The notes: a model not told the origin generated them from the sequence alone. Positions 3,915 to 61,691 are shown, counted from the first letter of the stretch. The stretch: DNA of 64,000 nt from an uncultured cyanobacterium (GCA_963793425.1 CAWCAG010000007.1:515217-579216); one strand, 5' to 3'. Translations and numbers: made by a program.

Positions 3915-4661
3915 ATGGAAATAATCAACTCAAAAATACAGTCCATCCTCAAGCTAGAGGGCTTGAGTTTAGCTACATATGTGGGAAATGTTTATTTATT
4001 ACAAGATATCTTTTTTACTGTTTATCCTGGGGAATTTATTGGTATTGTTGGTGCTTCGGGGGCGGGAAAAACTTCTCTTTTACGCTTAATTAATCGTCTT
4101 GGAGAAGCGACTTCTGGCGCAATTTTTTTTGAAGGGAAAACAATTAAGCAAATACCCATTCAGAAATTACGCCAACAAATAGTTCTCGTCTCTCAAGAGC
4201 CTAAACTATTAGGAATGAAGGTAGAAGAAGCCCTAGCTTATCCTCTAAGGCTTAGAAAAATTTCTTCCCAAGAAATCTCCTCTCAAGTAAATAAATGGCT
4301 GGATAAATTAAAGATTAATCCAGATTGGTTAGAGCGCAATGAACTACAACTTTCTACTGGACAAAAACAACTTATTGCTATTGCTCGTGGTTTAATTATA
4401 GAACCCAAAGTTTTATTATTAGATGAACCAACTTCAGCTTTAGATATAGAACAAACAGAGCATTTACTAAAGGTTCTTAGGGAATTAACCACCGAAAAGA
4501 AAACCACCATAATCATGGTTAATCATCAACTGGAGTTGATTAAAAGATTTTGTCAACGCATCCTTTACCTAAAACAGGGAAAATTACAGCAAGATGCTCT
4601 AAGCAAAGAAGTTAATTGGTTGCAATTAGAAAAAAGTCTGAAAGAAGCAGAATTATACTAA
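3915..4661 (+). CDS. ABC transporter ATP-binding protein
   Basis: Walker A GASGAGKTS, ABC signature LSTGQKQ, Walker B LLLDEPTSALD. Confidence 0.9.
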   Translation: MEIINSKIQSILKLEGLSLATYVGNVYLLQDIFFTVYPGEFIGIVGASGAGKTSLLRLINRLGEATSGAIFFEGKTIKQIPIQKLRQQIVLVSQEPKLLGMKVEEALAYPLRLRKISSQEISSQVNKWLDKLKINPDWLERNELQLSTGQKQLIAIARGLIIEPKVLLLDEPTSALDIEQTEHLLKVLRELTTEKKTTIIMVNHQLELIKRFCQRILYLKQGKLQQDALSKEVNWLQLEKSLKEAELY

Positions 4662-4907
4662 ATCCGATGTATAAAAGCCAATAATGAATTAAACATAAGT
4701 TAACCAAACGATAATTCGTTACTGGTGTTTCTATTTTGTTTGTACACAACTTTTTAGGGATAATACTTCAAACAATTTTCAAGTTGAGAATATTCACCTG
4801 CTGCATTTTTTTGTAAGCTACAGTATCAATTGTCGTCATTTCTGTTCTTTTAGCAGATAGTATTTCGTACTCAAATATCTCAGCAACAACGTAAAACTGT
4901 TCTCTTT

Positions 4908-6056
4908 CTATGGCCAAACTTGTTTACCTTGTTTGTCAATGTAAACATACTCGCCTTCTAAGGTAGAGTGCCATAATGTGTTCTCAAAATTATTTACATA
5001 ATCTAAACGGGCCGGTACAACCATTTGGCCAGTCTTATCAATAAGTCCCCACTTACTATTAGATTTTACAGGGGCCAATCCGTTAGTAAATTCTTCCGCT
5101 ATTTGAAACTGTGATTCGATAGCTATTTTTCCTGTTTCGTCAATATAACCCATCTTATTATTTAGTTTTATGGGAGCTAAACCTTCAGCAAATTTTCCTG
5201 CAAACTCAAATTGAGGAGAAATAGCCCACTTACCTTTCGAGTTAATAAATCCCCATTTTCCTTTACTCTCAGCAGCAGCCAAACCTTCTGAAAAACTGCT
5301 TGTCCATCCTAACCAAGGACGGACTACCCATTTTCCTTTTTTGTTGATGAAGCCCCAGCCACCATATTTAACAGCAGCTACTCCTTCTGAAAATGATTCT
5401 GCTGCCTCAAATTTAGCTTTGCTTACTTGTCTACCTTCGTTATCAACAAAACCCACTAAATTATTTTGGAAAAACTTAGCTCGTCCTTCTGAAAATTGGG
5501 CTACAGATTCATACTGTGGTGATACTATAAATTCACCAGTTTTGTTAATGAAACCCCACTTGCCATCTTTTTGAGCAGCAGCTAAACCTTCTGAAAAGTT
5601 ATTAAGTTGAGCAAATTGATTCTTGACTACCAATGTTTCCTGATGGTCGATAGCTCCCCAAAGATTATCTATTTTGACTAACGCTAGTCCTTCCACAAAA
5701 GGTCTAACTTCAGCAAATTGAGGGCTAATAACTACTTTACCTTTTGTGTTAACAAAACCCCATTTACCTTCTATTTTTACAGCAGCAAGTCCTTCAGAGA
5801 AGGTAGTAGCATCAGCAAATTGAAGAGGAATCATTATCTGACCTGAGTTGTCAATATAACCATATTTGCCCTGTTCATTGACAAGATATCTTTCTTCGGA
5901 CATATTACTAAGCTCTGAGGAAGAAATTGTTACAGAATTCAATTTATTAGAGTTACTTGAGACTAGTTGGGGAACCTGGCAACTGCTAAGGATAAAACTA
6001 ATAGTAATAGTTATCCAGAAGTGGATTGTAATTTCTTTAATAATTGATCTGCTCAT
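4908..6056 (-). CDS. WG-repeat lipoprotein (candidate immunity protein for the upstream toxin)
   Basis: 382 aa. Lipobox ILSSC. About ten tandem repeats of the form KWGFINxxGxxVIxPQFxxxxxFSEGLAAV. Start lies 34 nt downstream of toxin gene 6091-7413 on the same strand. Confidence 0.85.
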   Translation of the reverse strand: MSRSIIKEITIHFWITITISFILSSCQVPQLVSSNSNKLNSVTISSSELSNMSEERYLVNEQGKYGYIDNSGQIMIPLQFADATTFSEGLAAVKIEGKWGFVNTKGKVVISPQFAEVRPFVEGLALVKIDNLWGAIDHQETLVVKNQFAQLNNFSEGLAAAQKDGKWGFINKTGEFIVSPQYESVAQFSEGRAKFFQNNLVGFVDNEGRQVSKAKFEAAESFSEGVAAVKYGGWGFINKKGKWVVRPWLGWTSSFSEGLAAAESKGKWGFINSKGKWAISPQFEFAGKFAEGLAPIKLNNKMGYIDETGKIAIESQFQIAEEFTNGLAPVKSNSKWGLIDKTGQMVVPARLDYVNNFENTLWHSTLEGEYVYIDKQGKQVWP

Positions 6057-6090
6057 CTAGCTTCTAAATCAGAATGTTTTTTTGAAGACA

Positions 6091-7413
6091 TTAAGACTCA
6101 TTCTTAATGGTAATTCTGCCTACACTTCTTGAATCTTTTCTAGATTGGATTAAATAAGCCCATATTTGTTCCCAATGTTCTGTATTAACAACTGTGACAC
6201 AACCTTGGCTCACCATACCTGGATGTAGATAGCGATCTCCACTATTACCGATACGGAACCAAGTTGTGGCGTAGTTACCATATGCGGCTCCAAGACTATG
6301 TTGATAGTCAGGAATTTCTAGATCGTATGTACCTGAAGGAATAGGATTGGTAGCATCCATATGTGCGCTTATGGGACCGAAGCTACCAAAATTAAACTGA
6401 CCATTCCACACATTTCCAAAATCCTTGACTTTTGTCCAAGTTACCTGAGCTGAACTATTAGGATTGAGGTAATGACCCAATTGGTCTGTGCTTACCTTTG
6501 CTTTTTTGTCTTTATAATACCCTTCGTGAATTTTAATCCTTCTTACGTCTCCTTCGTTAGTTAATAGGGTAACTTTGAGAGTATGTGGAAGTTCTACAGG
6601 CTCTCCAGGGATATGGAAAGGACCAAGATAACCACTTTTTAAATCAGCCCATCCTGGGTGCTGTGGAGCTACAATACGACGATACGTACCTCCTCTAGCA
6701 ATCAATTGCTCTTCATTTCCCCTAGAAGCTGCTTGCTCAGATTGCGAATCTTCCTTTTTAGCAACAAAGCTGTTGTTATCTGGAATGGATGAAGTGTTCT
6801 TTTGATAGTCTTTTAATAAAGGCTGAACAGACTCTCCAGCAGCTACCTTAGCCCCCACAGCATCAGCCTCCACCTCATACTTATCTCCCACCTTGCCCAT
6901 CTCCCCCGCAAGTTGTACCTTACCGGATTGTTGCTGGACAACATGAGTTCCTTCATGGGCAGCTAACTCAACGCTAGGAGGCTTTTGGAAAGCAATCTTG
7001 TTCCCCATTGTATAAGCCTGCGCCCCCAATTGCTTACTCGCTGCTGTTGCTGGGCCACCGATATAAGCTTGGACATGGGATAAATCTTGTCCAAATGACC
7101 TTTGAATTCTATCTAAATGGGGTAACGCTACAGGGGAACCTGTAAAACCTGTAGCAGCAATCTGGGTGGGAGAATGATTAGCTTCTTCACCTCCACATTT
7201 GGCACATTTAGCTTGTACCTGTAAACCAGAACACATATTATCCCACATGGCCTTTTCACCGGCTATTTGCTGTTGCGTTGATGACTTCTTTTGAACTACA
7301 GGATTAGGAGTAGCTTTTTGTTGTACAGGTTGAAAGTGAGGGGCAGAATTAATAGTTGGCTTTGGTACAGGAGGAATAAAAGAGCTAGATTTTTGGACAA
7401 GTTTGTGACTCAT
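6091..7413 (-). CDS. polymorphic toxin A: DUF4157 (HExxH) N-terminal domain + L,D-transpeptidase/Tlde1-like C-terminal domain
   Basis: 440 aa. DUF4157-like stretch LDRIQRSFGQDLSHVQAY...GAQAYTMGNKIAF...AAHEGTHVVQQ (HExxH encoded at 6943-6957). C-terminus GTYDLEI...TTWFRIG...DRYLHPGMVSQGCVTV (Cys codon at 6199-6201) fits the His...Ser-x-Gly-Cys pattern of YkuD/DUF2778-type folds. Confidence 0.75.
   Translation of the reverse strand: MSHKLVQKSSSFIPPVPKPTINSAPHFQPVQQKATPNPVVQKKSSTQQQIAGEKAMWDNMCSGLQVQAKCAKCGGEEANHSPTQIAATGFTGSPVALPHLDRIQRSFGQDLSHVQAYIGGPATAASKQLGAQAYTMGNKIAFQKPPSVELAAHEGTHVVQQQSGKVQLAGEMGKVGDKYEVEADAVGAKVAAGESVQPLLKDYQKNTSSIPDNNSFVAKKEDSQSEQAASRGNEEQLIARGGTYRRIVAPQHPGWADLKSGYLGPFHIPGEPVELPHTLKVTLLTNEGDVRRIKIHEGYYKDKKAKVSTDQLGHYLNPNSSAQVTWTKVKDFGNVWNGQFNFGSFGPISAHMDATNPIPSGTYDLEIPDYQHSLGAAYGNYATTWFRIGNSGDRYLHPGMVSQGCVTVVNTEHWEQIWAYLIQSRKDSRSVGRITIKNES
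7084..7413. repeat. copy 1 of a duplicated 330-bp toxin 5' module (codons 1-110)
   Basis: Near-identical to 8556-8885. I count 7 amino-acid substitutions in 110 codons. Homology ends exactly after codon 110 (FGQD). Confidence 0.9.
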
Positions 7414-7452
7414 GGTTAGTGACGGAAGGAAGATAATTTGAGTAGAAAACAG

Positions 7453-7494
7453 TGCTTCTTAAACATTGCTTCTTAAACATTGCTTCTCAAACAT
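7453..7494. repeat. three tandem 14-bp direct repeats (TGCTTCTTAAACAT x2, TGCTTCTCAAACAT) upstream of toxin A
   Basis: Read directly from the sequence. They sit in the 137-bp gap between 7551-7946 and the toxin A start codon. Confidence 0.85.
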
Positions 7495-7550
7495 TCTGTT
7501 ACGGAAACATCTTTTAAAATGAGTTCCAATGTGAACTTTCGTCAAAATAA

Positions 7551-7946
7551 CTAAAGACCGATTAATCCTGTTGAAACAGAAACATTGACAACTTTGCCTT
7601 CTTGATGATCAATTGCCACTAACCATCTTCTTGAAACAAGCAATGCTTTGCTAAGCAACAGTTTGCTAAAGTCACAATGAAGAAAATCTTTCTCCTCAGT
7701 AGTTCCAAAAGTTTCATCTTGGAGATATCTACACTTAAAGCGATTTTCCTCCATTACTTTTTTTGCTTGGAAAACAGGACTACCCACCGAAATATGAGCT
7801 AGAATCTCTTTTTCCATCAAGCGTGGATCTTCATAAAACTTGATTTTGTTTACCATTGATTTACTCGCAAAGTTAAAAGCAACGTACACAATGATTCCTA
7901 CTAGGAAAAGAAGTAAAAAGTTTAGTGGTTTTTGATATATATTCAT
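7551..7946 (-). CDS. small membrane-anchored protein (candidate immunity protein for toxin B)
   Basis: 131 aa. One N-terminal TM helix (LNFLLLFLVGIIVYVAFNF) plus a domain of about 100 aa. Start lies 9 nt downstream of toxin B on the same strand. Confidence 0.5.
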   Translation of the reverse strand: MNIYQKPLNFLLLFLVGIIVYVAFNFASKSMVNKIKFYEDPRLMEKEILAHISVGSPVFQAKKVMEENRFKCRYLQDETFGTTEEKDFLHCDFSKLLLSKALLVSRRWLVAIDHQEGKVVNVSVSTGLIGL

Positions 7947-7955
7947 GTTGTTGAG

Positions 7956-8885
7956 CTAAATTTTCATTTTCCAACCAGGGGCCCATACAGGTGGAGAAGG
8001 ATTACCTAAATCAGCATCTCGTATACCTTGATGAGCTACAGAGTTACTGTTGGGACCTAATGGAAAATAACGAAGTTTTTGGGCTGCAATTCGACGCATT
8101 GTACCCACTAAGCTATCCCTGTATCTATTACAGGCTTTAAAATCCAAGTTAGTTGCTGCTTTAATTGTGCCACTGATATTTCTTCCCCAATCTACAGAAC
8201 TAGAATCATATTGCCCATAGCTAGTGACTAAGTATCCCCAAAAACCTTGATCCGTTCCACTAGAGTTGCTTGAATCAGTACGACTTACATCACTGGCAGT
8301 ACCACCAGTGCTACCACTACCGCTACTACCGCTAACACCTCCATTTGCACTCGGTCCACCGCGAAAAATTGTTTCTCTTGCAGATTCGATAGGTTTACCT
8401 TGCTCATCTACAGCTACTGGATCTGAAACTATAATGAAACCATGATTACCTACCCCAAAATCTACTCCGTAGTAGCGAAGCTCAACTTTACCTGGCCGAG
8501 TAAAAGATTTGGCAAGTTGTATTGTTGAGGCTCGGTCACTTTCTACTTTAGCTGAATCTTGTCCAAATGACCTTTGAATTCTATCTAAATGAGGTAACGC
8601 TAAAGGGGAACCTGTAAAACCTGTAGCAGCAATCTGGGTGGGAGAATGATTAGCTTCTTCACCTCCACATTTGGCACATTTAGCTTGTACCTGTAAACCA
8701 GAACGCATATTATCCCACATTGCCTTTTCACCGGCTACTTGCTGTTGCGTTGATGACTTCTTTTGAACAACCGGATTAGGACTAGCTTTTTGTTGTACAG
8801 GTTGAAAATGGGGAGCGGAACTAATCGTTGGCTTTGGTACAGGAGGAAGAAAAGAACTAGATTTTTGGACAAGTTGGTGACTCAT
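7956..8885 (-). CDS. polymorphic toxin B: same 110-aa N-terminal module as toxin A, unrelated C-terminus, no HExxH
   Basis: 309 aa. Residues 1-110 are about 94% identical to toxin A. It then diverges (SAKVESDRAS...), with a Gly/Ser-rich linker and a C-terminal region ending ...YFPLGPNSNSVAHQGIRDADLG... that I could not assign to a family. Confidence 0.7.
   Translation of the reverse strand: MSHQLVQKSSSFLPPVPKPTISSAPHFQPVQQKASPNPVVQKKSSTQQQVAGEKAMWDNMRSGLQVQAKCAKCGGEEANHSPTQIAATGFTGSPLALPHLDRIQRSFGQDSAKVESDRASTIQLAKSFTRPGKVELRYYGVDFGVGNHGFIIVSDPVAVDEQGKPIESARETIFRGGPSANGGVSGSSGSGSTGGTASDVSRTDSSNSSGTDQGFWGYLVTSYGQYDSSSVDWGRNISGTIKAATNLDFKACNRYRDSLVGTMRRIAAQKLRYFPLGPNSNSVAHQGIRDADLGNPSPPVWAPGWKMKI
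8556..8885. repeat. copy 2 of the duplicated 330-bp toxin 5' module
   Basis: See 7084-7413. Partial similarity continues a few nt into the 5' UTR/RBS. Confidence 0.9.
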
Positions 8886-8929
8886 AATTAGTCAGGGAAG
8901 AACGCTACATTATCGTACTTTGTGCCGGG

Positions 8930-9035
8930 ATGTCTCTTTCTCCTCGTTTATCTGACCTAATCTATCAAGCTAGTGAAGAACAATCTACCTATATAACCTT
9001 CAATTTAGCCCTAAAAACTTTTCCTCAACCTTTAT
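8930..9035 (+). pseudogene. AAA+ ATPase (Afp15/Pvc15-like), N-terminal fragment cut off by IS insertion
   Basis: ATG at 8930. The reading frame MSLSPRLSDLIYQASEEQSTYITFNLALKTFPQPL runs into the IS left end. Joining 9035 to 10376 continues the ORF in frame. Confidence 0.65.
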
Positions 9036-10375
9036 CAAAACGAAAAAAAGGTTTAAAACCCCGCCGTTTTAGGGCGGATTCGTTGATTTTTTCAGGTACA
9101 ATAAACATAATTTGCCAATAGCAACTGTTGCAACCAACATGAAAGCTAGATACAGATACAGATTTTACCCAACGAAGGAGCAGAAACACTCATTTGCTCA
9201 ACTATTTGGCTGTATCCGCGTCGTCTGGAATGATGCTCTGGCACAATGCAAAAGTGAAGGCAAAGCATTAAGCTACAACAAACTATCTAGCCTGTTAACC
9301 ATAGCCAAGAAGACAGAAGAAAGGATTTGGCTAAGGGATGTATCAGCAGTCCCCTTACAACAAACTTTAAGAAACTTAGCCGCAGCCTATAAAAACTTTT
9401 TCGACTCGTGCCGTGGTAAAAGGAAAGGTAAAAAAGTCTTACCACCAAGATTCAAAAAGCGGAGTAATCAACAAAGTGCAGCATTTACAAAATCAGCCTT
9501 CTCAATGGAAGGGCAACAAGTCTGCCTAACGAAAATTGGCAACATTACACCTATACTCTCAAGAGAACTTCCCTCAACTCCCACCTCTCTAACAGTAATC
9601 AAAGGTAGTGCGGATAGATACTTCATAAGCTTCGTAGTTGAAATACAACCACAAAACTTACCTAAGTGCCAATCAAGCATAGGAATAGACTTAGGAATAA
9701 CCGACTTTGCCACATTCAGTAATGGAGAGAAAATCAAAGCCCCAAAACCCTTAAAAAAGAAACTAAAGAAGCTCAGAAAACTACAACGTAACCTTGCCAG
9801 AAAGACGAAAGGTAGTAAGAGACGAGAATTAGCTAGAAGGAGAGTAGCCAAGCTTAACGCCAAGATAAAAGACACCAGAACAGATTTTCTACATAAGCTA
9901 TCAACTAAGATAATTCGTGAAAACCAAACGATAATCTTAGAAGATTTAAACGTATCGGGAATGCTCCGAAACCGTAAGTTATCCCGTGCAATTAGTGATT
10001 TAGGTTGGCGTAGTTTCAGAACTATGTTAGAAGCCAAATCAGTAATGTATGGCAGAGAATTTAGGGTAATAGATAGATGGGAACCCACATCACAGAGATG
10101 TCATGAGTGTGGTTTTAGAGGCGGCAAGCAGGAACTCTCTATTAGAGAATGGACTTGCTTAAACTGCGGTGCAGTTCACGATAGAGACGTTAATGCCGCC
10201 ATAAATATCAAAGTCGCGGGGGGACACTCTGAGACGATAAACGGACGTGGAGGGAAGCGTAAGACTACAACCGTAGCAGCACCCAAAGAAACGTCAACCC
10301 ACTTAAAACCTGTTCAACTTTCGTTGTTTGGGTAGATGAGGAATCCCCGTCTCTTTAGAGCGGGGAGGATGTCAA
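9036..10375 (+). mobile_element. IS200/IS605-family, tnpB-only (IS1341-type) element
   Basis: Boundaries were set by comparison with the second copy at 61148-61664. The shared sequence starts after TTTAT and ends ...GGATGTCAA. Subterminal hairpins: CCGCC-GTTTTAG-GGCGG near the left end and CCCCGTCTCT-TTAG-AGCGGGG near the right end. No tnpA gene. Confidence 0.85.
9139..10335 (+). CDS. tnpB: TnpB RNA-guided endonuclease (IS605 OrfB family)
   Basis: Probable ATG at 9139 ([12 protein letters not shown]). The ORF track extends to a TTG at 9112. RuvC motifs IGIDLGITDF, IILEDLNV and [11 protein letters not shown] are present, plus the zinc ribbon CHECG...CLNCG. Confidence 0.9.
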   Translation: MKARYRYRFYPTKEQKHSFAQLFGCIRVVWNDALAQCKSEGKALSYNKLSSLLTIAKKTEERIWLRDVSAVPLQQTLRNLAAAYKNFFDSCRGKRKGKKVLPPRFKKRSNQQSAAFTKSAFSMEGQQVCLTKIGNITPILSRELPSTPTSLTVIKGSADRYFISFVVEIQPQNLPKCQSSIGIDLGITDFATFSNGEKIKAPKPLKKKLKKLRKLQRNLARKTKGSKRRELARRRVAKLNAKIKDTRTDFLHKLSTKIIRENQTIILEDLNVSGMLRNRKLSRAISDLGWRSFRTMLEAKSVMYGREFRVIDRWEPTSQRCHECGFRGGKQELSIREWTCLNCGAVHDRDVNAAINIKVAGGHSETINGRGGKRKTTTVAAPKETSTHLKPVQLSLFG

Positions 10376-10395
10376 ACCATAGTCTTAATCCCCAT
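10180..10395 (+). ncRNA. predicted omega-RNA (scaffold over the tnpB 3' end and right end, plus a flank-derived guide)
   Basis: By analogy to characterised TnpB elements. The region is conserved in the deleted copy at 61.3-61.66 kb and contains the right-end hairpin. Exact 5' end and guide length are unknown. Confidence 0.4.
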
Positions 10396-12007
10396 GCCCC
10401 CTTACGTCACTGGCAAATTATCACTCCCATAGGTACAGACCCCCTGTTTTTACGTCCCTTAGCCTTAGATGAAACCATCTTCCACTACCTCTTAGGACAA
10501 CCTTGCCTTGACCCACAATTACAGGGTTTAGTCAAGCCTTTAACCCTGAAGCAAACAACCTTGCCCCCTTCCCACCAAGCCTTAGCAACCAGGTTAATCA
10601 CTGCCTGGTCTAGCCCTAACCCTCCGGTAGTACAATTAGTGGGTTCTGATTTTGCTGCTAAGGCTACTATTGCTGCTATTTCAACTCAACAGTTAGGCTT
10701 TTCTTTACTCACCATCCCTGCCCATCTCCTACCCCAAGAAACCACAGCATTACAAGAATTCTGCCAACGACTAGAAAGACAAACTATTTTGGGACGTAGC
10801 TTAGTTTTCCTCGATTGTCGTCAAATCTTAGAAAGTGATGGTTTAGCAGAGAAATTCTTTTCTCAATTAATTGAACAACTGCCTACTCCCTTCCTCATTA
10901 ACTCCCCAAAGCCCAAACAAATTTCTCAACCTTGCTTAATTCTGGAAGTTAACCCTCCCACTAAAGGGGAACAATTGCAACTTTGGCAAACTGCCTTGGG
11001 AGATGTGGCTACAAATTTAGAAACAGAATTGGCATCCTTGGCATATCAATATAATCTCGACCTCCCCACTATCCAAACCATCTGCACTCAAACTCTTACA
11101 GAATTGAACTTAAGTAACTCTCCTAGAGAATTACTCCCCAGCCTCCGACAAAACTGTCACCGTTTAGTTCGTCCAGCTTTACAAGGGTTAGCACAACACA
11201 TCGAAACCAAAGCAGATTGGGACAGATTTAATCCTGCCGGAAAAAGAAAAGAACATCCTTGAAGAAATTGTTGCCCAAGTTACTTACAGAAAAACTGTTA
11301 GTGCCGACTGGGGCTGGGCAGGGAAAGGGCAACGGGGACAGGCAATGGTGGCAGTCTTCGCTGGGGCAAGTGGTACAGGAAAAACTATGGCAGCAGAGTT
11401 GATTGGAAAGAGGACAGGTTTGGATGTTTATCGTATTGATTTGGCTGCTGTGGTGAGTAAGTATATAGGGGAAACGGAAAAACATCTGGGTCAAATTTTT
11501 GATGGTGCAGAAAGGGGAGGAGCAATTTTACTTTTTGACGAGGGGGATGCTCTGTTTGGTAAGCGTACTGAAGTAAAAGATAGTCGCGATCGCTATGCTA
11601 ATTTGAGTGTTAGTTATTTGTTGCAACGTTTGGAAGCTTACGGTGGATTAGCTATTATTACTACTAATTGGGAAGAATCTTTGGATAAAGCTTTTAAACG
11701 GCGTTTTCGCCATATTGTTCAGTTTCCCATGCCAGATAAAGAGACCAGGAAGCTACTTTGGCAAAGGATTTTTCCTCAAGCGACACCAACCCATCAGTTA
11801 AACTTTACGGAGTTAGCAAAGATGCACATTAGCGGTGGTCATATTCGCTCCATTGCTCTTAATGCCTGCTTCCTCGCTGTCAAAATAGGACAACCAGTGA
11901 CTATGAAGCAAGTGGCGATCGCTGCCCGTGGAGAGTACATAAAGCTAGATTTGGGAAATATGGATAGTTTTACTCAGCGTTGGTTAAAAGAAGCGGAGTT
12001 AAGTTAA
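10376..12007 (+). pseudogene. AAA+ ATPase (Afp15/Pvc15-like), main body with a 1-nt frameshift
   Basis: Degenerate first AAA-like region (VVQLVGSDFAAKATIAAI), then an intact module: Walker A GASGTGKTMAAE, Walker B LLFDEGDALFGKR, DRYANLSVSYLLQRLE, ITTNWEESLDKAFKRRF. The frame switches at the T-run 11227-11229. Removing one T gives ...DWDRLILPEKEKNILEEIV... The ATG at 10336 (MRNPRLFRAGRMS) lies inside the IS right end and is an artefact. Confidence 0.75.
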
Positions 12008-12084
12008 TTAAAACCTACTCCCTTAAAAAATAACTAAATTTTCTTTGCAAATCGAAAAAACAGTAATACAATCATTATTCATAA

Positions 12085-13557
<1,473 letters not shown>

Positions 13558-25256: not shown

Positions 25257-27554
25257 ATGGCTAAGCGATCGCTTAAAGCATCCCCAGAAGGTATTATTAG
25301 AGCCAAGAAAGCTTTTCAAAGAAAGGGCTGGACTCAGGAGTATCTAGCCGCCGAGGTTGGTTTATCTACTCGTCAGTCCATTTGGAAGTTTTTTACCGGA
25401 AGACCAATTGAGAGGCATCTTTTTGTGGATATTTGCTTTCAATTGGATCTTGAATGGCAATCTATCGCTGATTTACCTCCAGATGTAGAGCCTTTACCTG
25501 CCGCCACGGGGTTAGATAATCATGCCGGAGTAGAAAATTGGGTGGTGACTTTGCGCTCCCAAACTAAGGAGCAAATTCAAGCTCAATGCGGTATTTTGCA
25601 GTCATCTTTTGATATGACTCAACCTTTATTACTAGATTCTATTTATACTAATGTTAACATTTTGCCCCATCTTACTAATCAAAGATGGTTAGAAGTTTCA
25701 GATTTGCAAGATTCTCGCCCAGAGGTGGAACGCCCTCGGTTAACCTCAATAAATCAGCAGGTAGTTGCAGGTATTCAAGCCGCTACCGATAGTGCTAAGT
25801 TAATGATTTTGGGTAAACCTGGGGCTGGCAAAACTACCTTTTTACAGTATTTAGCGATTCAATGCAGCAAAGGTGAATATAAGGGTGATTGCATACCGAT
25901 TTTTATCCAGCTACGCAATTTTGTAGCTCAAACTAAAGAAGAAGAAGATTTTAGTCTTACAAATTATATTGCTCGAAGTTGGAGTAGTTATCAAGTTACT
26001 CAAGAACAAGTAGAAATTCTTTTGCAAAAAGGTAAGCTTTTAGTACTTTTAGATGGATTAGATGAAGTTCCCAAAGAATATAGTCAACAAGTTTTAAAAG
26101 AAATAGACCTTTTCGCTAATAACTACTATCAAAATCAAGTTATTATCACTTGCCGTATTGCTGCCCAACAATATTATTTTCGAGGATTTAATTATGTAGA
26201 AATTGCTGACTTTGATTCTAGCCAAATTAGAACTTTTGCCCAGAAATGGTTTGTTGCCAATTCTGGTGGTTCTGAAGAAGCAGGAATTCTTTTAACCAAG
26301 AAGTTTTTTGAACAGTTAGAATGCCGAGAAAATCAACCAATCAGAGAATTAGTTGCTACGCCTATTTTATTGAGCTTAATCTGCTCTGTATTCCAAGAAA
26401 GAGCTACTTTTCCGACTAAACGTTCTAAACTTTATCAAGCAGGTTTAGATATTCTGTTGGTACGTTGGGACCAAGCAAGGGGAATTCAAAGGGATCAAGC
26501 TTACCGTAACTTATCTTTAGCGGATAAAATCAAGCTTCTTAGTCAGATTGCGGCTATAAATTTTGAGCGAGGTAGTTTCTTTTTTGAAAAGAGTGAAATA
26601 CTCGATATTATTAGCAATCATTTAGCTAAATTACCTAATCATAAGCCAGATCCAGAAACTTTATGGTTAGATAGCGAGGCAATCCTCACAGCCATTGAAT
26701 TACAACATGGTTTATTGGTAGAAAGAGCTAGAGACATTTATTCTTTTTCTCATTTAACTTTTCAAGAATATCTTACTGCCAGAAAAATAGTTGCTAGTAC
26801 TGATAAAGAAGTATTAGAAGAGTCTTTAAATATGCTTGCTAGCCATGCTACTAATCCACAATGGCAAGAAGTTATTTTATTGACTTCGAGTATGTTACCG
26901 AATGCAGATTTTCTTTTGCAACTAATTAAAAAAGAGATTGATAAAATTTTCAAGGGTAAAGAAGAGCTGAGAAAATTTCTTAGCTGCCTCAATCAAAAAG
27001 TTAATAGCTTAGATGTCTCTTACCATTTAGGGGCAGTAAGAGCTTTTTATTTTACTCTTTTTCAAGATAGAGACTTGAATTTAGCTTTATCTTTAGACCC
27101 CAGTTTAGCTTCTGATTTGTCTCCAGATTTAGCTTTAGATTTAGCTTTAGCTCGCGCTTTTCGTATCAGCTTAATTTTAATCAAAAGCCCAGACCTGAAA
27201 AATATCATCAATTTAGGCTTTGCTTTAGATTTAGAGCGCAATTTCAACTTAGAGAAACCATTGCAGCAAGCCCTAGAAAAACTCAAACAAGAACTACCAG
27301 ATTTAGAAATAGGTAAAGAGAAACTTCAATCTTGGTGGCATAGTTATGGTGCAGAATGGGTGAGCAAATTTAGAGCTTTACTAATTGAATACAGACAAAT
27401 TGGTTATGAATGGCAGTTTACTCTTCAACAAGAACAATTACTGCGAAAATACTATGATAGTAACAAATTTATGATTAAGTGCCTGCAAAGCGATTGTCAA
27501 GTTAGTGGTGATCTGCGCCAAAAGATAGAAGATACAACTTTAAATCTCCCCTAA
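25257..27554 (+). CDS. STAND NTPase: N-terminal HTH-like domain + NACHT + helical C-terminal repeats
   Basis: 765 aa. XRE-like GWTQEYLAAEVGLSTRQSIWKFF. Walker A GKPGAGKTTFLQYLA, Walker B LLVLLDGLDEV. C-terminal LALDLALDLALARAF-type low-complexity helical region. Confidence 0.85.
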   Translation: MAKRSLKASPEGIIRAKKAFQRKGWTQEYLAAEVGLSTRQSIWKFFTGRPIERHLFVDICFQLDLEWQSIADLPPDVEPLPAATGLDNHAGVENWVVTLRSQTKEQIQAQCGILQSSFDMTQPLLLDSIYTNVNILPHLTNQRWLEVSDLQDSRPEVERPRLTSINQQVVAGIQAATDSAKLMILGKPGAGKTTFLQYLAIQCSKGEYKGDCIPIFIQLRNFVAQTKEEEDFSLTNYIARSWSSYQVTQEQVEILLQKGKLLVLLDGLDEVPKEYSQQVLKEIDLFANNYYQNQVIITCRIAAQQYYFRGFNYVEIADFDSSQIRTFAQKWFVANSGGSEEAGILLTKKFFEQLECRENQPIRELVATPILLSLICSVFQERATFPTKRSKLYQAGLDILLVRWDQARGIQRDQAYRNLSLADKIKLLSQIAAINFERGSFFFEKSEILDIISNHLAKLPNHKPDPETLWLDSEAILTAIELQHGLLVERARDIYSFSHLTFQEYLTARKIVASTDKEVLEESLNMLASHATNPQWQEVILLTSSMLPNADFLLQLIKKEIDKIFKGKEELRKFLSCLNQKVNSLDVSYHLGAVRAFYFTLFQDRDLNLALSLDPSLASDLSPDLALDLALARAFRISLILIKSPDLKNIINLGFALDLERNFNLEKPLQQALEKLKQELPDLEIGKEKLQSWWHSYGAEWVSKFRALLIEYRQIGYEWQFTLQQEQLLRKYYDSNKFMIKCLQSDCQVSGDLRQKIEDTTLNLP

Positions 27555-40295: not shown

Positions 40296-41216
40296 ATGAC
40301 ACTGTACGATAATTTTATTGAACAGTTAATGCAACAGCCTGAACTGAATGTAGCTGAGGAAATTTGTAAGCTGGTTGAAAATAAGATTGAGGTGGGCGAT
40401 CGCCTTAAGTTCCAACAAGTAGATAAACTCAAAGAATGGTTGGATAGCTTTCGCCCTTTTTCTCCAATTCTTGTGGCAGAATTGAAAAAAATTTATGATG
40501 TTCAATTTACTTACAATTCCAACGCTATTGAAGGTAATACTTTAACCCAAAGTGAAACAGAATTAGTCTTATCAAAAGGAATTACTATTGGTGGGAAAAC
40601 CTTACAAGAACATTTAGAAGTTGTAGGACATCAAGATGCTATTAATTATATTGAAACCTTAGCGAGAAAAGATAGTCTTGTGGGAGAGTGGGAAATAAAG
40701 CAAATTCATAATTTAATTTTAAGAGCGATCGCTCCTGAAGAAGCAGGCAAGTACAGACAACTTGATGTTAAAGCAGCAGGAACTAGTTATGTTTATCCCG
40801 CTCATTATTTGTTACCACAGTTAATGACAGAATTTGTTAGCTGGCTGAATTCAGAAGCAAAACAAACATTGCATCCTATTGAGTATGCAACCCTAGCTCA
40901 TTTTCGCTTTGTTTCTATTCACCCTTTTCGAGATGGTAATGGCAGAACGGCAAGATTATTAATGAATCTTCTTTTACTGCAAACTGGATATCCTGTTGTA
41001 GTTATTTCTAATCAAATTCGTCATGAATATATTAATGCGGTTGCCCATGGACAACAAAATAAACAGGATATTAAGCTACTTTTAAATATCATTCTTGATG
41101 CCACCTATAAATCTTTGGTAGAAACTTTAACAATTGTGGCAACTGCCAGAGATAGTAGAGGTAAAGGAGAGAATTTTCATGAAGAAATGATAGGCTTTCT
41201 AAAGGTAAGAAATTAA
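40296..41216 (+). CDS. Fic family protein (class II, in-cis inhibitory helix)
   Basis: Active-site motif HPFRDGNGRTARLL. Upstream SNAIEGN fits the (S/T)xxxE(G/N) inhibitory motif. Confidence 0.9.
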   Translation: MTLYDNFIEQLMQQPELNVAEEICKLVENKIEVGDRLKFQQVDKLKEWLDSFRPFSPILVAELKKIYDVQFTYNSNAIEGNTLTQSETELVLSKGITIGGKTLQEHLEVVGHQDAINYIETLARKDSLVGEWEIKQIHNLILRAIAPEEAGKYRQLDVKAAGTSYVYPAHYLLPQLMTEFVSWLNSEAKQTLHPIEYATLAHFRFVSIHPFRDGNGRTARLLMNLLLLQTGYPVVVISNQIRHEYINAVAHGQQNKQDIKLLLNIILDATYKSLVETLTIVATARDSRGKGENFHEEMIGFLKVRN

Positions 41217-61497: not shown

Positions 61498-61691
61498 CAA
61501 AGTCGCGGAGGGACACCCTGAGACTCTAAACGGACGTAGAGGCAGGTGTAAGACTACTACTGTAGCAGCAGCCTATGAAACGTCAACCCACTTAGAACCT
61601 GTTCAACTTTCGTTGTTTGGGTAGATGAGGAATCCCCGTCTCTCTAGAGCGGGGAGGATGTCAAGAATATACTGATGTATCTAAGCTGAAA

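Follow-up and report, generated by a model that had tools for sequence, protein, structure and literature searches.

An island pairing leader-matched toxin genes with a disrupted Afp15-class ATPase gene in an uncultured cyanobacterium: a probable satellite of a contractile injection system

Organization of the island

The DNA analysed here, referred to as the window, is a stretch of 64,000 nucleotides from an uncultured cyanobacterium (GCA_963793425.1, CAWCAG010000007.1:515217-579216). It contains an island flanked on one side by an ABC ATPase gene (3915–4661) and on the other by a TPP riboswitch (12079–12175; 71 bits), the same flanks that a first-pass annotation had reported, the latter as a thiC riboswitch. 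Four ORFs are located on the minus strand (4908–6056, 6091–7413, 7551–7946 and 7956–8885) and the pieces of an ATPase gene on the plus strand, all at the coordinates given in that annotation. Its left edge of the block has to be moved outwards, to at least 4766, where the relic of an immunity gene is found. This relic (4766–4813, minus strand; tblastn) comprises the last 16 codons of a gene of the type present in the intact relative L001 (QKNAAGEYSQLENCLK), and is 81% identical to the 161/163-aa proteins of L001 (E 1e-4); at the DNA level 4766–4893 aligns with L001 7447–7569 (blastn). As had been claimed, the 64-kb window is devoid of sheath, tube and DUF4255 ORFs, both by HMM search and by reading of the ORFs.

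The toxin ORFs and the putative immunity ORFs are intact. The gene at 4908–6056 (minus strand) specifies a 382-aa WG-repeat lipoprotein, a call borne out by nine repeats (PF14903, 3.5e-101) and by a lipobox (LSSC). Its position, with toxin A on one side and the older immunity relic on the other, places it in the cassette, and the lipoprotein is a candidate immunity protein for toxin A. No WG gene lies 3' of the toxin A homologue P0299, hence its immunity role is without support from another locus. The gene at 7551–7946 (minus strand) encodes a membrane-anchored protein of 131 aa with an N-terminal hydrophobic helix and no match in Pfam. It is a candidate immunity protein for toxin B; the pairing recurs in L002, in which a 60%-identical homologue is located directly 3' of a toxin-B-type gene.

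The toxins and their shared leader

Toxin A (440 aa; 6091–7413, minus strand) consists of a hydrophilic leader of ~95 aa, a DUF4157/eCIS_core domain, an SH3-like region and a C-terminus of probable L,D-transpeptidase fold. The second of these is a match to PF13699 (eCIS_core, formerly DUF4157; 3.3e-15, aa 101–164, 56.5 bits, cut-off 22) and carries the HExxH motif as HEGTH, within AHEGTHVVQQ. The C-terminal domain matches Tlde1_dom (PF10908) at 22.6 bits, under the gathering threshold of 30.1. An AF2 model of the protein (pLDDT 94) found DpaA (8ikr) as its best match among solved structures using Foldseek, with a probability of 0.99 but an E value of 0.0097 and a TM score of 0.35. Across 28 homologues H131, H156 and C164 are invariant; the fusion partners among these are eCIS_core (17), OmpA (2) and PG_binding_1 (2). 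The domain is probably YkuD-like, a fold known from Tlde1 and DpaA/LdtF, with a ...HPG..S.GC... motif that holds the invariant His and Cys, and we infer that it is a peptidoglycan-directed enzyme, predicted to be antibacterial. It differs from Tlde1, an L,D-transpeptidase-like effector of the T6SS, in the extra SH3-like N-terminal half of its C-terminal region and in not being delivered by a T6SS.

Toxin B (309 aa; 7956–8885, minus strand) has a leader of the toxin A type, followed by ~14 residues of DUF4157 and a C-terminal toxin domain. Both proteins had been taken for DUF4157 toxins, which is correct for toxin A; toxin B has no match in Pfam and no HExxH, and BLASTP against toxin A reveals only the first ~14 residues of DUF4157. 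It has lost this domain by recombination. Its C-terminal domain belongs to a family that is found at the ends of Rhs proteins as well; its homologues bear the annotation RHS repeat-associated, and an H, RGGPS and NSN are invariant among them. The AF2 model (pTM 0.73) has CLN5 as its best, weak, PDB match (E 0.34).

The N-terminal matching of the two toxins, noticed in the first-pass annotation, is evident over the first ~110 aa, which are ~93% identical. At the DNA level this is a direct repeat of 346 nt with 93.9% identity (self-blastn). Copy 1 (7083–7428, minus strand) contains the 110 leader codons and 15 nt 5' of the toxin A ATG; the outer end of copy 2 (8555–8900, minus strand) coincides with a deletion junction with the ATPase remnant. 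The dN/dS ratio between the copies is 0.18, and leader values of 0.16–0.18 indicate purifying selection. The leader, whose disorder was judged by composition only, contains the motifs QKxSS and LQ.KCAxCG, which resemble those of cluster-encoded cargo.

This architecture, a disordered leader, DUF4157 and a variable C-terminus, is that of toxin A and also of AlgoCIS Cgo1/Cgo2, Anabaena Alr3311/Alr3312 and EATs; furthermore Cgo1 and Cgo2 are, as toxins A and B, two cargos of one system with a common leader. Published deletion work has demonstrated that cargo loading needs the disordered N-terminal domain, that DUF4157 is dispensable and that the AAA+ protein Alg15 is the mediator of loading. Unlike DUF4157 EATs, toxin B is without this domain. 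It has also been reported that 88% of known EATs are encoded within ten genes of an eCIS operon, whereas toxins A and B lie outside the ten-gene range of any such operon within the 64-kb window.

Two recombination junctions are apparent in the toxins, one within the first DUF4157 strand (residue ~110) and the other after the DUF4157 linker (residue ~228). Together with the immunity relic, these mark the island as a polymorphic-toxin cassette locus. As with polymorphic toxin loci of the Rhs/CdiA type and their orphan cassettes, there is a conserved N-terminus with variable C-terminal toxins, a small immunity-like gene after each toxin, short conserved junctions, a displaced immunity relic and, in toxin B, a domain held in common with Rhs proteins. 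The delivery module is different: a leader of contractile injection system (CIS) type takes the place of the Rhs shell, CdiA filament or T6SS/T7SS domain.

The ATPase gene and its lesions

The repaired ATPase shows 33% identity over 518 aa, covering both D1 and D2, to Afp15 of Serratia pADAP (BLASTP, E 2e-66), the gene for which is annotated as an AAA family ATPase and is located between a tape-measure gene and a DUF4255 gene. Its assignment to the Afp15/Pvc15 class in the first-pass annotation is therefore well founded. The description of one degenerate and one intact AAA module likewise holds: PF00004 is found only at aa 362–486 (4.2e-21), on D2, which has canonical GASGTGKT and LLFDEGD motifs, while D1 has GSDFAAKA where the P-loop is expected. 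Nearly all of the 120 listed homologues carry PF22977, which scores weakly in the truncated copy of the window. Like Afp15, Pvc15 and Alg15 (Cis15) the protein combines a winged-helix region at its N-terminus with a degenerate D1 and a canonical D2; in contrast to them, its gene lies outside a tail cluster, is divergent from the cargo instead of upstream of it and is a pseudogene.

Fragment 1 of this pseudogene (8900–9035, plus strand) corresponds to residues 68–112 of an intact 652-aa relative. Window positions 8900–9034 align with L001 10202–10336, and L001 9721–10201 has no counterpart (blastn); a deletion of 481 bp has removed the whole divergent intergenic (promoter) region and ATPase codons 1–67. 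When the first 80 residues of P0002 were compared with the window (tblastn) only residues 68–80 matched. The 5' truncation had been overlooked. Since homology starts at 8900 with residue 68, the 578 aa proposed earlier are not a full-length product (homologues are of 650–700 aa, and the Met encoded by the ATG at 8930 is internal) and the supposed 44-nt gap between the divergent genes is the deletion junction.

The gene is next interrupted, as had been recognized, by an element of the IS200/IS605 family (9036–10375, plus strand) which carries tnpB only (ORF 9112–10335) and no tnpA. The TnpB protein was identified by NF040570 guided_TnpB (330 bits, cut-off 100) and by three Pfam TnpB domains, OrfB_IS605 and Cas12f1-like_TNB being named among its matches. 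The insertion into the ATPase gene is clean, and its flanks are contiguous in L001; it is also present in L007, while L008 ends inside the element. Fragment 2 (10376–12007, plus strand), with the degenerate D1 and canonical D2, contains a +1 frameshift caused by an extra C at 11223 which is absent from L007 and P0001. Removal of this C restores ...ADWEDLILPEKE, as in two other assemblies, whereas the deletion of a T at 11227–11229 suggested previously yields DR where ED is expected.

With the deletion, the TnpB insertion and the frameshift of this assembly the ATPase is not producible in this genome. The dN/dS of the ATPase against its relatives is 0.05–0.08, and the inactivation of the loader appears to be recent.

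Relatives and genomic context

Of 80 genome loci with a relative of the ATPase, 66 also contain a sheath, tube or DUF4255 gene. The typical order in such tail-linked loci is DUF4255–ATPase–DUF4157 cargo; the synteny survey called for by the first-pass annotation thus finds the relatives beside tail markers, usually upstream of DUF4157 proteins. The family assignment stands on these loci, but the window copy is unlinked, as none of the markers occurs in the 64 kb.

A divergent ATPase/cargo pair with no tail genes within 10 kb is found at a minimum of eight other cyanobacterial loci, including L001, L003 (Allocoleopsis/Microcoleus PCC 7113), L013 and L018 (Coleofasciculus), L047 (Roseofilum), L095 and L097, and the housekeeping flanks differ among them. 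L001 is an intact relative with an ATPase 86% identical to that of the window and the same leader. L047 has two leader-matched cargos; that adjoining the ATPase lacks DUF4157 and carries Ntox11. In L002 the ATPase has a different 5' truncation and the cargo ORFs are fragmented. The orphan ATPases form no supported clade (12% NJ bootstrap), so that a single origin of the satellite type is unsupported.

The pair of PCC 7113 is located at 2.69 Mb, and the published eCIS locus of this organism at 6.98–7.03 Mb. Such a pair may be the only loader operon of its genome, relocated, rather than an extra satellite, since in cyanobacteria the DUF4255–ATPase operon is often >10 kb from the sheath gene (L010, L011, L021, L023, L025).

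Nature of the locus

We lean towards the view that the island is a satellite loader/cargo island of a CIS, well away from any tail genes, polymorphic-toxin-like in its make-up, with a recently inactivated loader. Among the three explanations put forward in the first-pass annotation a satellite island is the best supported as a kind of locus, since the pair recurs intact in other filamentous cyanobacteria and PCC 7113 has an eCIS elsewhere in its genome. What counts against it is that neither the 64-kb window nor the best 120 matches of the sheath query described below yielded a tail cluster for this genome.

Decay, another of these explanations, applies to the ATPase gene, with its 5' deletion, IS insertion and frameshift, but no trace of former tail genes was found at this site. 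That a full eCIS cluster once stood here, lost its tail genes and left its distal loader/cargo end to decay is unlikely in our opinion. Canonical clusters do end with the ATPase and cargo, and the ATPase is visibly decaying both here and in L002. In canonical clusters, however, the cargo genes share the direction of the ATPase gene and lie 3' of it, with a long DUF4255 gene ahead of the ATPase. Divergent cargo, with no DUF4255 relic, is found here and in no fewer than seven intact relatives. Moreover, the island is flanked by intact housekeeping genes, its location is different in each relative, and the low dN/dS of the ATPase shows long maintenance in the divergent arrangement.

The third explanation is that the ATPase and the leader-bearing toxins are an autonomous system of filamentous cyanobacteria, in which toxins are exported or activated with no contractile tail. 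If true this would represent a delivery or activation route needing no contractile particle. We rate it as improbable, and found no positive evidence for it. At no fewer than nine loci the pair has no tail genes within 10 kb; among the best 120 matches listed for a Spirulina subsalsa sheath query none was traceable to this MAG or its samples; and Geller et al. scored 0/5 Roseofilum and 0/1 Coleofasciculus genomes as eCIS-positive. Against this, sheath proteins exist in Roseofilum and Coleofasciculaceae, PCC 7113 possesses its separate eCIS locus, the leader motifs are the same as those of cluster-encoded cargo, and the orphan ATPases do not group as a clade of their own. Nor does the module include an export component such as a membrane channel or secretin, and the ATPase has no membrane segment.

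An intracellular defence or toxin-antitoxin role, with an ATPase like that of the anti-phage IetAS system and toxins acting inside the producer, is very improbable, for the best NCBIfam and PADLOC matches (IteA, 92 bits against a family cut-off of 510; IetA, 106 bits) cover the D2 AAA domain only, there is no IetS-like protease neighbour, the full-length matches are to Afp15 and a PHROG ATPase profile of 667 positions, no PADLOC model matches the toxins, and the putative immunity proteins belong to the envelope, as would suit periplasm-acting toxins arriving from outside.

Proposed function of the satellite island

Cargo loading by the AAA+ protein has been published only for Alg15 and Pvc15. 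By extension from that work, in the intact form of the satellite island, as in L001, the Afp15/Cis15-class ATPase would recognize the ~95-residue leader of the neighbouring cargo and thread the cargo, probably in an unfolded state, into the tube of a CIS particle whose genes lie elsewhere in the genome. The variable C-terminal domains would be antibacterial, that of toxin A directed at peptidoglycan and that of toxin B being the Rhs-borne type, and the envelope-located protein encoded after each toxin gene probably gives self-immunity. Toxin/immunity cassettes would be swapped by recombination at the conserved junctions at ~110 and ~228.

With the ATPase dead and the toxin and immunity ORFs intact, these ORFs would remain silent, have their products loaded in trans by a different ATPase, or be retained chiefly for immunity. 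Perhaps, and we offer this tentatively although it has more in its favour than a tail-independent module, every satellite comes with an ATPase paralogue of its own that is matched to its leader. If this were so, new toxin families could plug into a resident injection system.

Locus and surroundings

The DNA stems from a metagenome-assembled Spirulinaceae cyanobacterium, and every ORF of the first-pass annotation was found in its place. On the minus strand these are toxin B (7956–8885), a 131-amino acid membrane protein (7551–7946), toxin A (6091–7413) and a WG-repeat lipoprotein (4908–6056); a AAA+ ATPase gene lies divergently on the plus strand. The block is bounded on the left by an ABC-ATPase gene (3915–4661) and on the right by a TPP riboswitch (12079–12175; 71 bits) ahead of thiC, and outside it the genes of the 64 kb look like cyanobacterial genes for housekeeping and signalling. 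The reported absence of tail genes was borne out by HMMs for sheath, tube and DUF4255 proteins, trained on cyanobacterial contractile injection system (CIS) loci, which gave no match across the 64 kb. Two other plus-strand products were read from translation only: a 765-amino acid protein (25257–27554) with an N-terminal HTH-like region and the P-loop GKPGAGKTT looks like a NACHT/STAND NTPase, and a 306-amino acid protein (40296–41216) carries the Fic motif HPFRDGNGRTARLL.

A 1.22-Mb contig, together with fragments from GCA_049671325.1 and ENA ERZ25039505, carries exact protein matches to toxin B, the 131-amino acid protein and ThiC. An exact protein look-up with toxin A returned no record; the other assemblies diverge in the repeated leader region. 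An independent contig (L007; ENA ERZ25039505 contig_27373, 7479 nt) is an exact circular permutation of 4594–12075, running from 6914 to 12075 and then directly from 4594 to 6912, with only "at" as microhomology where 12075 meets 4594; the flanks of this unit lack direct repeats. A tandem copy of the complete island, a circle cut out of the genome or a loop in the assembly graph could each account for the permutation.

The ATPase gene and its family

An open frame results when 8930–9035 is joined to 10376–12007 and one base is taken out; Pfam recognizes one canonical AAA domain in it. The one-base repair proposed earlier holds in its effect but not in its position, the frameshift being an extra C at 11223; since two other assemblies lack it, it may be strain-specific or an error. 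The same two assemblies share the 1,340-bp insertion (9036–10375), a clean IS200/IS605-type element with tnpB alone. The repaired product had been taken for a whole protein, which it is not: compared with its closest intact relative (P0002; 652 amino acids, 86% identical) it lacks the first 67 residues. Homology begins at 8900, and only 15 nt separate that point from the start codon of toxin B. The absent N-terminal part has no match anywhere in the window, and relative to the locus of the intact gene (L001) 481 bp have been lost, comprising the entire divergent intergenic region and ATPase codons 1–67. About 7,900 homologues were found, the best 120 of which are nearly all 640–715 amino acids long and combine a winged-helix domain (PF22977) with AAA. 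Compared with its two relatives, the repaired gene has a dN/dS of 0.05–0.08 and was therefore strongly constrained until recently.

The right-end hairpin of the TnpB element (10340–10376) occurs again at 61629–61665 on the plus strand, with 2 mismatches in 37 nt and no tnpB ORF listed alongside; this copy could be either a solo end or a miniature form of the element. Of the 94 differences between the window and the permuted contig, 75 fall inside the element (region 9000–10000), which suggests several diverged IS copies in the population, or copies mixed by assemblers.

The first-pass annotation had placed the ATPase in the Afp15/Pvc15 class from its motifs. A tblastn search of plasmids led to pADAP of Serratia entomophila, where the matching gene, an AAA gene flanked by the tape-measure and DUF4255 genes, is Afp15; the repaired ATPase is 33% identical to it over 518 residues covering both AAA modules (E 2e-66). 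A scan taking one genome per species gave 80 ATPase loci from many phyla, with sheath, tube or DUF4255 ORFs in the fetched flanks of 66, most commonly in the order sheath-tube-...-DUF4255-ATPase-DUF4157 protein(s). In this single scan the lineage of the window was not among the returns, the best match being 44% identical. The alignment to Afp15 and the tail-gene neighbours directly support the Afp15/Pvc15 assignment. Two other placements were discarded: matches to the anti-phage ATPase IetA/IteA, which would make this a defence system, are limited to the second AAA domain and lie far under threshold, and a separate clade of orphan ATPases, grouped in the NJ tree, was dropped because its bootstrap is 12%.

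The leader and the toxins

Over the first 110 residues toxin A matches toxin B at about 93% identity; after that point the two proteins show no relationship. At the DNA level this leader is a 346-nt repeat (7083–7428 and 8555–8900) consisting of 110 codons and the 15 nt before each ATG. The description of both proteins as DUF4157 toxins is correct for toxin A, whose leader is followed by a full DUF4157/eCIS_core domain (3.3e-15) with HEGTH; toxin B retains of DUF4157 only the first strand, ...LPHLDRIQRSFGQD, and then changes to a domain without a Pfam match.

The C-terminal 200 residues of toxin A gave a confident model (pLDDT 94) with an SH3-like barrel and a YkuD-type domain, for which the best solved match is DpaA, an L,D-transpeptidase-family enzyme (probability 0.99, E 0.0097). 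The family has an invariant His and Cys in a ...HPG..S.GC... motif, and its members are fused to eCIS_core in 17 of 28 homologues and to OmpA or peptidoglycan-binding domains in some. As the Tlde1 Pfam score is below threshold, we restrict the call to a predicted L,D-transpeptidase fold, probably peptidoglycan-directed.

Relatives of the toxin B C-terminal domain include proteins annotated as RHS repeat-associated, and the alignment places the domain after the Rhs core motif. It is a putative, uncharacterised toxin domain shared with Rhs proteins and absent from Pfam. Members of the family have RGGPS, a long loop rich in Gly and Ser, an invariant His and, at the site of N-C-N in permuted papain-like (PPPDE/CLN5-type) enzymes, an Asn-Ser-Asn that is likewise invariant (mostly PLGPNSNS). 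The best fold match, CLN5 at E 0.34, agrees with this His...NSN pattern, spotted by eye, and is too weak to claim. A promoter and terminator scan gave counts no higher than in shuffled sequence and has no bearing on toxin B expression after the upstream loss.

Cassette structure and immunity candidates

Toxin A and the cargo protein of L001 have about 228 residues in common and then diverge, and downstream of the WG-lipoprotein gene, at 4766–4813, the final 16 codons of an immunity gene of the L001 type remain. From this relic and the shared part, the toxin A domain and WG gene seem to have taken the place of an older cassette, the same organisation as in polymorphic-toxin loci. Position and envelope location make the 131-amino acid protein and the WG lipoprotein putative immunity proteins. 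The former is backed by a related island (L002), where a 60%-identical homologue directly follows a toxin-B-type protein; as a conserved immunity partner the WG lipoprotein was rejected, the one toxin A homologue locus that was inspected having no WG gene. In the L002 protein a complete DUF4157 precedes another copy of the ...ATTGF...LPHLD...GQD motif, behind which lies the toxin-B-type domain, and we infer that recombination between the two motif copies of such a form would yield the DUF4157-less toxin B of the window.

This second island (ENA ERZ25039505 contig_15155, 4000–11300) comes from the same metagenome sample as the permuted contig. Its ATPase is 93% identical in protein sequence over the shared part and is truncated at a different point, leaving 422 amino acids; the island also contains, in scrambled order, fragments of DUF4157 and of toxin-B-like sequence and three or four genes for small membrane proteins. 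It could be a paralogue residing in the same genome, or could derive from a sister strain.

Recurrence of loader and cargo pairs away from tails

A divergent ATPase with leader-bearing cargo recurs, free of tail markers over as much as ±10 kb, in Spirulinaceae (L001, L002), Allocoleopsis/Microcoleus PCC 7113 (L003), Coleofasciculus (L013, L018) and Roseofilum (L047), and at L095 and L097, each pair in a different housekeeping neighbourhood. The Roseofilum locus repeats the pattern of the window, with two leader-matched cargos of which the ATPase-adjacent one lacks DUF4157 and carries Ntox11; other cargos have an anthrax-lethal-factor-like domain or PG_binding_1. Several of the leaders begin with a similar ..VQKKSS..P motif and also contain LQ.KCAxCG; the latter is widespread in the cargo of canonical clusters, which argues that the paired cargos would use the ordinary CIS loading route. 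A tail-independent toxin system, an unlikely rival explanation, has no positive support.

In PCC 7113 the pair lies at 2.69 Mb, away from the eCIS locus at 6.98–7.03 Mb (Geller et al., supplementary table). At five loci from Nostocales and Leptolyngbyaceae (L010, L011, L021, L023, L025) a long DUF4255 gene stands immediately before the ATPase, with no sheath or tube gene within 10 kb. Given these distances, loader/cargo operons are commonly unlinked from tail operons in cyanobacteria, where CIS genes often seem to be divided between a tail operon and a loader operon. None of the best 120 hits of a protein search with the Spirulina subsalsa sheath was traceable to this organism; those followed, which had NCBI+ENA provenance, belonged to other samples. 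The divergent pair may be an extra satellite or the only loader operon of its genome.

Overall reading and significance

In published work a disordered N-terminal domain is required for loading, DUF4157, the hallmark of CIS cargo, is dispensable, and an AAA+ protein mediates loading. By homology we propose that the role of the intact module would be to load a CIS, produced from elsewhere in the genome, with antibacterial toxins that carry the leader. The window copy has intact ORFs for its toxins and putative immunity proteins, a dead loader and a deletion of the native promoter region; most likely the locus is a decaying satellite island of CIS loader and cargo genes. Its novelty lies in how known parts are arranged and not in the kind of system.

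The choice and loading of CIS cargo are still poorly understood, and engineering of CISs as protein delivery tools is under way. That a module of dedicated loader ATPase and leader-matched toxins recurs far from tails suggests that loader and leader travel as a unit, and surveys limited to the surroundings of tail operons miss part of the toxin repertoire. The window copy itself matters less because its loader is dead; chiefly it shows how such islands rearrange and decay.
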